From a virus (lineage: Duplodnaviria; Heunggongvirae; Uroviricota; Caudoviricetes), in the IMG/VR virus record IMGVR_UViG_2724679238_000007, positions 1 to 42,109 of that record: DNA of 42,109 bases, one strand, 5' to 3'. Below are positions 3,243 through 30,535 of this stretch, in pieces. The translations under genes were made by a program, and so were the position numbers. Below the pieces are notes generated by a model. That model was not told where the DNA came from, did not search any database, and was given only the letters and a program-made list of their open reading frames with translations. Position 1 is the stretch's first letter; the number at the start of each line of letters is the position of its first letter.

Positions 3243-3330
3243 CCCGCTGCTAAACGGGTGGCAGGACGTGACGGGGTTAGCAGACTGGCACGAATGAAAC
3301 CAGCAGGCCGAAGCCTCCCCACCACGCCCC
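3243..3330 (-). ncRNA. c4: c4-type antisense RNA, copy 1 (boundaries approximate)
   Basis: Non-coding stretch between the operator/promoter and icd. It contains CACGAATG (3289-3296) presented between a CTGG/CCAG stem, complementary to CATTCGTA present both upstream (3402-3409) and at the icd RBS (3218-3225). It also contains a UUCG hairpin and a 7-bp CTGCTAA/TTAGCAG stem. Confidence 0.45.
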
Positions 3331-3507
3331 ACCATAATTTGGGCGTAACGCGGTTTTACGGACATAAAAATACCGCAATATCGGAAATCTGCGGTTGTCC
3401 GCATTCGTATTCAGGCTGCTAAACCCGGTCGCAGAATTTGCTACGACGGCGGAACTATAAGCCTGAACAACAGGAAGATCAATAGTCTGGCGTTCGATGG
3501 TAGTTTA

Positions 3508-3540
3508 TTTGCTCTAATAAATCAAATTTATTAGAGCAAT
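3508..3540. promoter_or_regulatory. pair of abutting, inverted C1-repressor operators controlling the c4-icd-ant (copy 1) promoter
   Basis: 3524-3540 is a perfect reverse match to ATTGCTCTAATAAATTT; 3508-3524 is a 14/17 forward match. Confidence 0.75.
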
Positions 3541-7721: not shown

Positions 7722-7797
7722 TGGCGATGGTGGGTGGATTCGAACCACCGACCAGTTAGTTAACAGCCAACTGCTCTAACCGCTGAGCTACACCATC
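7722..7797 (-). tRNA. tRNA-Asn (anticodon GUU)
   Basis: 76 nt: perfect acceptor GATGGTG/CACCATC, D-arm TAGCTCAGCGGTTAGAGC, anticodon arm GTTGG-CTGTTAA-CTAAC, T-arm GGTGG-TTCGAAT-CCACC, discriminator G plus CCA. Confidence 0.8.
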
Positions 7798-8459
7798 ACT
7801 TGCCGGGTACGTCTCCGGCGAGGGCTTCCACCTCCGTATGCTTTTCGGCGCACCGCGCCCTGGCTGCAATTCGGTAACAGGGGATGCATAACCCTGGCTT
7901 CCAGCGTGATTAGCGCTTTCAGCATGACGGGATATACCCGTGATTGAAACTTTAATGGACCAATGTGAAACACATATGCTGTTACGCCGAATGAAAAAGG
8001 ACGTAACAGGAAAGGGCACTGACCAAAAGATGGCCCCCTTCTCGCTCATCTGGTTAATCGAACCAGCGCCCTTGCCTGTTATGCCTCCCCGTTCCCTAAT
8101 ACACAGACGGGGACACTCTGCGGTCGATTTTTTGACGGGGGACGACTCATACCCCGTGGCGTCTGGCTTCTTAGGCCGCAGCCATCATCAGATCATCGTT
8201 TGCATTTACTTTAATGGTCAGTTTCTAAACCGCCGCAAAGTCGCTAACCATGACGAAAACCCTGAAAAAACGCCCACCCGAAGATGGGCAAACAGGATGT
8301 AAGCTCGTTACGCATTTCGGTATTGCCACTTAGGCGTATGGTCAACCTGGCAACTCGGCGTCATGAGGGGGAAGGAGTCACTACCCCGCCATACTTGCCG
8401 CCGCGCCTGTCGCGGCTAACAGCTAAATCGCTCTATAAATCTCGATTTATCAAGCCCAT

Positions 8460-8487
8460 ATTACACTAATAAATTTATTAGAGCAAT
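8460..8487. promoter_or_regulatory. overlapping inverted pair of C1 operators (palindromic bipartite operator) at the 3' end of dmt
   Basis: 8471-8487 is a perfect reverse match to the C1 consensus; 8460-8476 is a 15/17 forward match; the two overlap on AAATTT; positioned to control leftward transcription into the tRNA-tci-ban-dbn region. Confidence 0.7.
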
Positions 8488-25997: not shown

Positions 25998-26184
25998 CAG
26001 TGCAGTAAAAAATTCCTTGCTCCTTGACAGAGGAGAGGATTAATCTAAGTACGCTAAGCATAGGTATGGCCCCGGTTAATGTTAAGCGTTGTGCGGGACG
26101 CATAATGTTTACTGGGGCTTTCTTCTATCTGCTTTTCGGGTAATACCTGAAGCTGATAGCCTCAAGCACACCGCAGCGGGTGTA

Positions 26185-30240: not shown

Positions 30241-30328
30241 CCCGCTGCTAAACAGGTGGCAGGACGTGACGGGGTTAGCAGACTGGCGATTGTGAAACCA
30301 GCAGGCCGAAGCCTCCCCATCACGCCCC
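30241..30328 (-). ncRNA. c4: c4-type antisense RNA, copy 2, with an altered recognition octamer (boundaries approximate)
   Basis: Same architecture as copy 1, but the loop octamer is CGATTGTG (30287-30294), complementary to CACAATCA at 30216-30223 (icd RBS) and 30400-30407. Confidence 0.45.
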
Positions 30329-30518
30329 ACCATAATTTGGGCGTAACGCGGTTTTACGGACACAAAAATACCGCAATATCGGATATCTGCGGCTGTCCGC
30401 ACAATCATTCAGGCTGCTAAACCCGGTCGCAGAATTTGCTACGACGGCGAAACTATAAGCCTGAACGATTAAAAGGTCAATATGATGCGAAAAGATAGCA
30501 TTCGCGACTTAAAAATAC

Positions 30519-30535
30519 AAATTTATTAGAGCAGA
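30519..30535. promoter_or_regulatory. C1-repressor operator upstream of c4-icd-ant copy 2
   Basis: AAATTTATTAGAGCAGA is a 15/17 reverse match to the C1 consensus. Confidence 0.65.

Follow-up and report, generated by a model that had tools for sequence, protein, structure and literature searches.

Genes for transfer-messenger RNA (tmRNA; ssrA) in phages are listed in published surveys only for mycobacteriophages and Bacillus phage G (2014) and for 79 unnamed phage sequences (2025), and the survey pipelines reject sequences without a tRNA-like domain (PMC4131195, PMC11915505). In addition, mycobacteriophage DS6A carries a "tmRNA" that consists of the tRNA-like domain only and is thought to interfere with host trans-translation (PMC4131195, PMC11915505). 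The element described here lies on the minus strand at positions 8261 to 8086 of a 42,109-nucleotide (nt) stretch of DNA from a virus of the Caudoviricetes (IMG/VR record IMGVR_UViG_2724679238_000007; the whole stretch is referred to as the window), in the P1-like leader between dmt and the tRNA cluster of the ban operon. As in DS6A, the phage carries one half of a tmRNA; whereas DS6A keeps the tRNA-like domain and has no tag frame, the element has a tag frame, pseudoknots, and an antisense domain and no tRNA-like domain. Neither a phage tmRNA-like RNA without a tRNA-like domain nor an anti-tmRNA RNA was described within the library of literature searched. On the comparisons set out below, we see about an even chance that promoter Pban and operator Oban are followed by a processed, RNA-rich ban-operon leader in which the element would be the descendant of a tmRNA coding piece that lost its tRNA-like domain, gained a 36-nt antisense stretch, and acts on the host tmRNA.

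Two other described groups of RNAs are close to the element. Prophages of enterohemorrhagic Escherichia coli encode anti-small-RNA "sponges," which are phage base-pairing RNAs directed against host noncoding RNAs. The element resembles them in being a phage RNA complementary through its 5′ end to an abundant host regulatory RNA; it differs in that its target would be tmRNA and in that it carries a replacement copy of the region that it would mask. With the beta-type permuted tmRNAs (RF01850 and RF04321), it shares the resume context AUAAAU-GCAAACGA, a tag of 10 codons that conforms to AND[DEN]x[FYM][LA][AMV][AV]A, a stop codon within a closing helix, and, after that helix, an H-type pseudoknot that can be aligned to the beta_tmRNA model. 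Unlike the beta-type RNAs, it has no acceptor piece, T-arm, CCA, or acceptor 5′ strand, and where their coding piece has a 5′ part of ~88 nt, the element has the 36-nt antisense stretch. A first-pass annotation of the window had suggested that the leader could carry an unrecognized structured RNA, and this suggestion was supported by the apparently tmRNA-derived RNA with its covarying pseudoknots, by a long hairpin, and by an ultraconserved block of 144 nt.

A BLAST search with positions 8040 to 8300 matched 291 phage records outside the P1 group, including ViI-like Ackermannviridae, N4-like Schitoviridae, T1-like Drexlerviridae, and an Aeromonas phage, and nearly all of the matches lay in unannotated spacers in the orientation of the flanking genes. 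The alignment of these relatives contained an invariant ...AUAAAU GCA AAC GAU... followed by a short frame, and a pattern scan of IMG/VR recovered 127 loci that form 36 clusters (below 90% identity) and that all have a frame of 10 codons. In the window, an A-rich 22-nt spacer (8204 to 8225, minus strand) ends in UAAAU, which is the context of a tmRNA resume codon; at 8208 to 8201, UAAAU-GCA provides U at −5, A at −4, and the Ala codon GCA. The sequence UAAAU-GCAAACGAUGA is identical to the context in genuine tmRNAs of Legionella and Oxalobacteraceae, and the corresponding context in E. coli is UAGUC-GCA. The tmRNA-type tag frame itself (8171 to 8203, minus strand) reads GCA AAC GAU GAU CUG AUG AUG GCU GCG GCC UAA and encodes ANDDLMMAAA followed by a stop; for comparison, the E. 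coli tag is ANDENYALAA.

The tag frame was intact in 52 of 52 P1-like sequences, and it comprised 10 codons in all 104 distinct relatives (104/104), with UAA as the stop codon in 102 and UAG in 2. The last codon specified Ala in 103 of the 104, by way of GCC, GCG, GCU, or GCA, and the synonymous variation at this residue points to selection on the peptide; position 9 was Ala or Val and position 7 was Leu or Met. The element is not annotated in the records of P1, P7, and D6 or in those produced by the Prokaryotic Genome Annotation Pipeline (PGAP). Direct sense alignment of the leader to E. coli ssrA gave nothing significant, and sense alignment to the Legionella and Noviherbaspirillum tmRNAs matched only 16 to 21 nt around the resume codon, a match that is circular because those tmRNA loci had been found with the same pattern. 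A 16-mer scan of genome contigs was unspecific; it returned genuine tmRNAs and random coding matches, with no enterobacterial prophage copy among the matches listed.

Downstream of the tag, the secondary structure was examined by testing five helices, namely, a helix around the stop codon and two H-type pseudoknots of two stems each, on an alignment of 36 cluster representatives. Standard pairs were formed in 94.4% of the alignment cells, versus 37 to 45% when the partners were slid by 1 to 3 columns; compensatory changes were found in 15 of the 23 pairs, and none of 500 shuffles reached the observed values. In the P5-like helix (8157 to 8184, minus strand), 8184-8181 pairs with 8160-8157 and encloses the 3′ half of the tag and the stop codon; 100% of its cells were paired, with compensatory changes in 4 of 4 pairs. 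Pseudoknot A (8123 to 8156, minus strand) consists of stem 1, 8156-8152 with 8140-8136, and stem 2, 8146-8143 with 8126-8123. Variants that keep the pairing included GUGAGG/CCUCAU, ACGGGG/CCCCGU, and GCAAGG/CCUUGU in stem 1; for stem 2, the P1-like and N4-like phages have GUCG/CGAC, and the T1-like phages have CCGA/UCGG, CCAG/CUGG, or CCAA/UUGG. Pseudoknot B (8086 to 8122, minus strand) consists of stem 1, 8122-8117 with 8107-8102, and stem 2, 8113-8108 with 8091-8086; its variants were CGCACU/GGUGUG, CGCAGA/UCUGUG, and CGUGGU/ACCAUG in stem 1 and GCCC/GGGC, UCCCCG/CGGGGA, GCCCUGA/UCAGGGC, and, in Kuttervirus, GACGGGAG/CUCCCGUC in stem 2. Compensatory changes were thus present in all four pseudoknot stems. 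A shuffle test of each 4-bp pseudoknot stem 2 in single sequences was not significant; the support for stem 2 is given by covariation across sequences. The E. coli tmRNA has three pseudoknots downstream of its tag. In the 60 nt upstream, no pseudoknot 1 was evident, the sequence being explained instead by complementarity to the host tmRNA; these 60 nt barely vary, and covariation therefore says nothing about a pseudoknot 1 there.

The antisense domain, which is nearly invariant, occupies positions 8226 to 8261 (minus strand), with the sequence G GUUUUCGUC AUG GUUAGCGAC UUUGCGGC GG UUUA, and is complementary to nt 68 to 104 of E. coli tmRNA, a target that comprises the pseudoknot 1 loop and the 3′ strand of its stem 2, the spacer, the resume codon, and codons 1 to 5. 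The phage strand reads GUUUUCGUC[AUG]GUUAGCGAC UUUGCGGCGGUUUA, and the reverse complement of the host RNA reads GUUUUCGUC GUUUGCGAC[UAUUU]UUUGCGGCUUUUUA. Among 16,826 segments of 45 nt from both strands of the 42 kb, the domain was the best antisense match to ssrA, with a score of 35 (mean, 15.5; standard deviation, 2.6; next unrelated match, 30). For 14 distinct versions of the domain, the calculated duplex with tmRNA nt 56 to 130 amounted to −25 to −34 kcal/mol, an energy reached by 0 to 2 of 200 dinucleotide shuffles in each version; the same domains gave −10 to −24 kcal/mol with their own tag region, −24 kcal/mol with the Legionella tmRNA, and −19 kcal/mol with the Noviherbaspirillum tmRNA. 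Divergent forms of the domain are still complementary to the host RNA, including UAGUUUUCGU...GCGAUUAU in the N4-like phages, ...CUUGCGACU in Kuttervirus, and CGUCGUAGCGAUUAU in Serratia phage 3M, and Aeromonas phage pIS4-A has UUUGCGCUUUUUUA where the others have UUUGCGGCUUUUUA.

The host resume codon was confirmed at nt 90 (G90), and the predicted duplex would end at U68, beside G67, the nucleotide that closes stem 1 of pseudoknot 1 by ssrA complementarity and in the published tmRNA model. In the phage RNA, 22 nt (8225 to 8204) separate the end of the duplex from its own GCA, and in the host, 22 nt (U68 to C89) precede G90; the same duplex end point and 22-nt spacing were found in 74 of the 104 relatives. 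In addition, in 8 clusters and in Aeromonas phage pIS4-A, a near-consensus promoter of the form TTGACA-17-TAGATT ends 21 nt before AGCGAC, a placement from which the RNA would start a few nucleotides before the antisense domain. These promoters, located 5 to 8 nt upstream of the domain, give indirect evidence that it may be expressed as a discrete RNA. A start just before the seed region is usual for base-pairing RNAs. As a separate observation on the host RNA, nt 27 to 33 of E. coli ssrA (UUUGCGA) are perfectly complementary to UCGCAAA at nt 88 to 94, across the resume codon; this self-complementarity may be due to chance, and it bears on the idea that the antisense domain evolved from the 5′ half of a tRNA-like domain.

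The sequence comparisons show the operator and promoter, a covarying RNA structure, a conserved tag frame without any tRNA-like domain, and complementarity to host tmRNA at the spacing given above; we infer that the RNA is expressed and pairs with host tmRNA in vivo, with either a block or a replacement of the host tag as the outcome. The RNA would be made when C1 repression is lifted or, in virulent relatives, from a σ70 promoter of its own. Its 5′ domain would pair with nt 68 to 104 of the host tmRNA, covering the resume codon and the first five tag codons and opening stem 2 of pseudoknot 1, and the host tag template would thereby be blocked. The phage strand would leave the duplex beside stem 1 of pseudoknot 1, with 22 nt to its own resume codon as in the host, and the host tRNA-like domain with SmpB may then deliver the phage tag ANDDLMM[A/V]AA instead of ANDENYALAA. 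More tentatively, and with doubt outweighing confidence, the element might be viewed as a "parasitic coding piece" present in at least four enterobacterial phage families (P1-like, T1-like Drexlerviridae, N4-like Schitoviridae, and ViI-like Ackermannviridae), which would use the whole host tmRNA-SmpB as its acceptor piece by docking over the resume codon and grafting on its own spacer and tag.

Several points weigh against this proposal. In minimum free energy (MFE) folding without pseudoknots, neither the core nor the upstream leader did better than shuffles, and in P1-like sequences UUUGCGGCGGUUU is predicted to have an alternative, internal partner in AAAUCGACCGCAGAG. The domain did not stand out (z = −1.7) when duplex energies of 40-nt segments were scanned with no control for composition. 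In the shuffle-controlled duplex test and the alignment-based antisense scan given above, the E. coli tmRNA was the only host tmRNA used as a target. The 5′ domain is in part similar to UUCGAC...UUGCGA, a motif from the 5′ half of the tRNA-like domain, and some of the complementarity could therefore have come by descent and not by selection. The P1-like genomes have no recognizable promoter for the element, which lies just past a terminator-like hairpin, so that its transcription would need read-through from Pban, processing, or an unrecognized promoter. Finally, the pairing must compete with stem 2 of the host pseudoknot 1, and the ribosome would have to accept a tmRNA bearing a side duplex of ~31 bp.

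It is possible, if unlikely, that the RNA is an antisense inhibitor and nothing else, with its pairing to host tmRNA shutting down tagging or trans-translation and with the tag frame and pseudoknots never decoded, being either scaffold or inheritance. The complementarity that argues for tag replacement argues equally for simple inhibition, and there is a precedent in the RNA of DS6A, which has only the tRNA-like domain and is reported to inhibit tmRNA (PMC4131195). An inhibitor of this kind would, however, have no need for an exact 10-codon frame in 104 of 104 relatives, for a terminal Ala maintained through four synonymous codons, or for an invariant stop codon, and it would need neither the U(−5)A(−4) resume context nor the exact spacing of 22 nt.

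Somewhat less probable again is a function without any pairing to host tmRNA, in which the element would serve as a decoy, drawing off proteins that bind tmRNA at its message-like or pseudoknot part, or as a stabilizing or processing element of the tRNA/ban transcript, and would owe its complementarity to descent. Such a role would be consistent with a structure that is conserved independently of any target, with the frequent location of the element among tRNA genes and long hairpins, and with the resemblance of the 5′ domain to the UUCGAC...UUGCGA motif of tRNA-like domains. Against this reading, genuine permuted phage tmRNAs with the same type of tag had antisense scores of 10 to 16, versus 29 to 44 for the elements without a tRNA-like domain, and the 5′ part of E. 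coli tmRNA itself gave only −16 kcal/mol with the same target region. In addition, many T1-like loci have no tRNA gene at all within several kilobases.

The absence of a tRNA-like domain was examined with ARAGORN and with Rfam models. ARAGORN detected no tmRNA in the window, in P1, P7, or D6-type loci, in ECBP1, 3M, CS01, or Pollock, or in 60 viral loci; in the controls, it called E. coli ssrA and 13 phage tmRNAs recovered by the same tag pattern. The best non-tRNA Rfam matches of the window and of six of six unrelated phage loci were the permuted-tmRNA models, with scores of 21 bits for the window and 20.5 to 33.4 bits for the relatives, below the gathering scores of 47 to 84. When aligned to Rfam tmRNA_permuted, the elements had the 113-nt tRNA-domain block reduced to 13 to 17 nt. 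As a positive control, a second scan of IMG/VR, requiring the tag context alone, gave 95 distinct hits. In the first class, 76 hits (and 3 borderline ones) had the antisense 5′ domain, none had the 5′ motif of the tRNA-like domain, and ARAGORN found no tmRNA in the loci scanned. In the second class, 13 hits had no antisense domain and were called as tmRNAs by ARAGORN, 12 of them permuted, and the three that were checked with Rfam scored 95 to 165 bits. Furthermore, the tag ANDNAFLMAA is identical in a permuted phage tmRNA (contig L259) and in the element of Serratia phage 3M, which has no tRNA-like domain. The two mutually exclusive classes, the Rfam likeness, and the shared tag indicate that the element is a relative of the coding piece of beta-type two-piece tmRNA from which the tRNA-like domain is missing.

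Beta-type permuted tmRNA genes were also observed on viral contigs in their own right, at L259 301-772, L305 3012-3368, L280 341-748, and some 10 other loci of IMG/VR; their tags include ANDNAFLMAA, ANDEKFALAA, and ANDEAFALAA. These permuted phage tmRNAs are likely the ancestors of the enterobacterial-phage element without a tRNA-like domain. The long hairpin modules that flank the element were considered as a hidden or permuted tRNA-like domain and were rejected as a general explanation: their arms are conserved, their inserts are hypervariable, a T-loop is present in some, and none has G3:U70. Among the flanking modules, CCA occurs only in the 5′ modules of T1-like phages. A helix closing the core between its 5′ and 3′ sides was also considered and rejected; it is possible in T1-like phages, where the module arms repeat, and not in N4-like phages.

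Given these results, it is improbable that the element is the coding piece of a complete two-piece phage tmRNA whose acceptor piece lies elsewhere or is too divergent to be recognized. The relationship to permuted tmRNAs would be compatible with such a piece, as would the fact that some flanking modules, such as those of locus L024 and module A of the window, contain tRNA-like hairpins that have T-loop-like sequences. Yet ARAGORN, which recognized the 13 tmRNAs of the control set, recognized none when given the window, P1, P7, D6-type loci, and the 60 viral loci; the hypervariable flanking inserts mostly have neither a T-arm nor CCA, and no acceptor helix with G3:U70 can be drawn; and the small T1-like loci are without any tRNA-like gene.

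Conservation along the leader was computed by column over 52 distinct P1-like sequences. Values were 0.80 to 0.86 for the 3′ coding end of dmt, 0.71 to 0.87 for the part known as "dicF-like," 0.94 to 0.999 for 8305-8006, 0.85 to 0.88 for 8005-7946 (the least conserved part of the downstream leader), and 0.96 to 0.997 for 7945-7796, and the two blocks 8305-8006 and 7945-7796 were better conserved than the neighboring gene and tRNA. A decaying phage tmRNA pseudogene, or a plain untranslated leader without a function of its own, might explain why the element falls below every Rfam gathering threshold and carries no annotation; such an origin is very improbable, however, for an element that is more conserved than the adjacent coding sequence, has compensatory changes in five helices, keeps its frame in 104 of 104 relatives, and recurs in phage families that are unrelated, with at least 36 clusters in all.

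A search for a conserved protein-coding gene in the leader, by open reading frame (ORF) conservation in 52 relatives and by comparison with PHROG and Pfam, found none: the four longest leader ORFs were each intact in only 1 or 2 of the 52 distinct P1-like relatives, and none matched PHROG or Pfam. The records of P1, P7, and D6 have no coding sequence annotated there, and in the 562 of 5,426 complete E. coli genomes (~10%) with P1-like plasmids in which the region is present, PGAP annotates nothing or a sporadic "hypothetical protein." The idea that the leader encodes a small protein, such as the 61-codon frame 7973-7788 through the ultraconserved block, is hardly credible, since this frame, although open for 63 codons in 35 of 52 relatives and annotated as a "hypothetical protein" in SJ46, JL22, and some PGAP records, has a GTG start, no Shine-Dalgarno sequence, a stop codon 10 nt inside tRNA-Asn, no PHROG or Pfam match, and three observed substitutions of which one is synonymous and two are nonsynonymous, and since the other long ORFs are broken in at least 50 of the 52 relatives. 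In one E. coli genome match, NZ_JBVWFV010000002.1, only the first ~243 nt of the leader align, and the features there are a Dam-family methyltransferase and a DnaB-like (ban) helicase. Some P1-like plasmids, like this one, may be natural deletions of the tmRNA-like element, the tRNAs, and the tci genes and, if so, would be useful for tests of function.

The control region upstream of the element is that of P1. The region of the window is 89 to 91% identical to P1, P7, and SJ46, in reverse orientation, and the gene order dmt, leader, tRNAs, tci, tRNA-Ile, ban, and dbn is common to the window and P1. With the 17-bp asymmetric C1 operator consensus ATTGCTCTAATAAATTT, a scan of the whole window at up to three mismatches yielded 7 matches, versus 0.27 expected from shuffles. 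Operator Oban-a (formerly Op72a; 8471 to 8487, minus strand) has no mismatch to the consensus, and its P1 homologue is annotated at 68667 to 68683. Oban-b (formerly Op72b; 8460 to 8476, plus strand) has two mismatches and overlaps Oban-a by 6 bp, an arrangement that is the same in the P1 and P7 records. The ORF of dmt, on the minus strand, ends at 8478, and its stop codon (8480-8478) lies within the first operator; the palindromic C1 operator pair that the first-pass annotation had placed at 8460 to 8487, across this stop codon, is therefore real. Promoter P1ban (8458 to 8486, minus strand) has the −35 sequence TTGCTC (8486-8481), a 17-nt spacer, and the −10 sequence TAATAT (8463-8458), with a predicted start at ~8451, and has the same position relative to the operator as the annotated P1ban of P1; because its −35 sequence matches the consensus at only three of six positions, it was absent from the list of a generic promoter scan.

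The homologous site in the P1 GenBank record (AF234172) is the divalent operator Obanab (formerly Op72ab), which overlaps promoters P1ban and P2ban and "controls expression of ban," and in the P7 record the site controls the tRNA genes and the genes downstream. The operator pair over the dmt stop codon and the promoter geometry are the same in the window as in P1, with no difference at the operator. C1 binding and repression at this site and a transcript that reaches ban are known for P1. The operator, the promoter, and operon-level read-through are thus established knowledge, reportedly from Heisig, Lurz, Schuster, and co-workers (1987 to 1989) and from Lobocka et al. (2004).

Downstream of the leader, ARAGORN identified tRNA-Asn (GTT) at 7797-7722 (minus strand; 71.7 bits with the Rfam tRNA model) as the first gene of the tRNA cluster, followed by tRNA-Ser at 7354-7268 and a tRNA with a CAU anticodon at 6306-6231, both on the minus strand; after the tRNAs come the tci genes and ban (5955-4585). 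Compared with P1, the window has tRNA-Ser and a disrupted tRNA-Thr in place of the Thr/plp/upl segment. At 7722-7585 (minus strand), the homologue of the P1/P7 tRNA-Thr (TGT) keeps the acceptor/D-arm 5′ part and the T-arm/acceptor 3′ part, with the anticodon region replaced or expanded by ~57 nt and no ARAGORN call; this may represent a tRNA that has been disrupted, an insertion resembling an intron, or a tRNA-like RNA.

No C1 operator was found between 3540 and 8460 by the scan, and ban therefore has none of its own directly upstream, as had been noted at the outset; nor was there a sigma-70-like site immediately upstream of ban at the scan threshold. Both results fit read-through expression of ban. 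Beyond P1ban, however, the leader contains a strong, GC-rich intrinsic-terminator-like hairpin (8265 to 8294, minus strand; GCCCAUC-UUCG-GGUGGGC followed by U6), detected by a terminator scan, which lies some 160 to 185 nt past the predicted Pban start and is part of a highly conserved block (0.95 column conservation). Since it stands between Pban and the tRNAs and ban, any read-through transcript must pass it. Phage D6 keeps the hairpin and everything downstream of it and has no Pban and a different upstream context. The initial picture of ban expressed by read-through from the operator-controlled promoter thus agrees with the scans and with the P1 and P7 annotation, where it was already known, but it had missed the terminator-like hairpin. 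Likewise, the ~680 bp before the tRNA cluster do lack a convincing ORF, with tRNA-Asn starting at 7797 and the long ORFs not conserved; the description as a noncoding leader holds for the size of the gap and the lack of a conserved ORF and falls short in that the stretch is no plain leader, containing as it does the terminator-like hairpin and dense conserved RNA elements.

The segment labeled "dicF-like" in P1 (8323 to 8415, minus strand) is the homologue of ~90 nt located just upstream of DicF in the Qin prophage. It has ~82% identity to the ydfC-dicB spacer of the K-12 Qin prophage (the matching ~90 nt of Qin being at 1501-1592 of locus L249), which is present in 4,413 of 5,426 E. coli genomes (81%). 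In the alignment, the homology covers ~90 nt upstream of DicF, and in the phage the place of DicF itself is taken by the short terminator hairpin. The Rfam DicF model (RF00039) scores 76.7 bits for Qin and found no match in the window even at E ≤ 10. A DicF homologue at 8415-8323 was therefore ruled out, the likeness being to the upstream flank only, and the P1 label "dicF-like region" is misleading. The conservation of these ~90 nt suggests that Qin and P1 share a functional RNA segment or a signal for processing, placed ahead of a different 3′ module in each (DicF in Qin, the terminator hairpin in P1).

On the other side of the element, a long hairpin, module A (7999 to 8085, minus strand), has arms AACAGGCAAGGGCGCUG and CAGUGCCCUUUCCUGUU around a variable insert, with an MFE of −38.5 kcal/mol (z = −3.8; 0 of 200 shuffles as good). 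In T1-like and Aeromonas phages, the module arms (AACAGGYAAGRGC... and ...GCYCUUUCCNGUU) flank the element on either side, and the inserts are hypervariable. The arms recur twice downstream of tRNA-Asn in the window, at 7582-7498 and, for the 3′ arm, at 7170-7154 (minus strand). A hairpin family with arms ACAACAGGYAAGRGCAYU ... AGUGCUCUUUCCGUUGUGGUG, which is not in Rfam, was observed in the window and in loci L007, L024, L065, and L251; it is common to P1-like, T1-like, and Aeromonas phages, some of its inserts contain T-arm-like hairpins, and the motif that trails it, GUGGUGAAUGCG..., is found after DicF in Qin as well. The hairpins of this family may serve as sites for processing or for RNases. 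Two short hairpins (7946 to 8009, minus strand) vary in sequence and keep their pairing; one is CUGUUACG...CGUAACAG, and the second is AUGUG-UUU-CACAU in the window, GUGCU-UAAC-AGCAC in P1, and GCCAUU-GCUU-AAUGGC in D6. The sequence CUGUUACG (8009-8002) can pair either with AACAGG (8080-8075), closing module A, or with CGUAACAG (7986-7979), and the two pairings are mutually exclusive. The GC-rich ultraconserved block of 144 nt (7798 to 7941, minus strand) abuts tRNA-Asn; across the window, P1, P7, and D6, it varies at three positions only, and it is 98 to 100% identical in ~560 E. coli genomes, where it occurs only in P1/D6-like elements. It has no Rfam match, no significant fold (z = −0.6), and no convincing ORF.

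A few further RNAs were observed in the window. Between tRNA-Ser and tciA, positions 7158-7040 (minus strand) have a subthreshold match to Rfam STnc100 (36.4 bits; gathering score, 47), and a weaker match is found at the corresponding place in the N4-like phage ECBP1 (L003 2702-2785); the RNA island may thus be shared more widely between these phages. Complete RNA loci of the immI type are present twice, at 3254-3460 and 30252-30458 (minus strand); each comprises a C4 antisense RNA (70 to 71 bits), c4-a1b1 targets, and an isrK-like match, and each is preceded by C1 operators (3508-3540 and 30519-30535). One of the two immediately follows ban-dbn. Descriptions of P1 usually have only one immI region. 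In addition, a sok antitoxin RNA of the hok/sok type was found at 26003-26171 (minus strand), with 62.5 bits, above the Rfam gathering score of 59.

P1 is one of the most studied phages, and in spite of this and of the frequency of P1-like plasmids in E. coli, the stretch has been left unannotated or mislabeled "dicF-like." The unannotated RNA gene is present in about 290 phage records, some of them from therapeutic candidates against Klebsiella, Salmonella, and E. coli; current tmRNA finders reject it as truncated, and the present alignments would readily yield a covariance model of its own. If the RNA pairs with tmRNA, it would be, to our knowledge, the first natural antisense regulator of tmRNA and would give viruses a further, new means of taking over quality control in the host. 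It could explain why a tmRNA-like tag frame is kept by phages without any tRNA gene. If tag replacement does occur, stalled ribosomes in infected cells would be rescued with a phage tag (…LMMVAA, …VVLMAA, or …FLAVA) and not with the ClpXP degron …YALAA.

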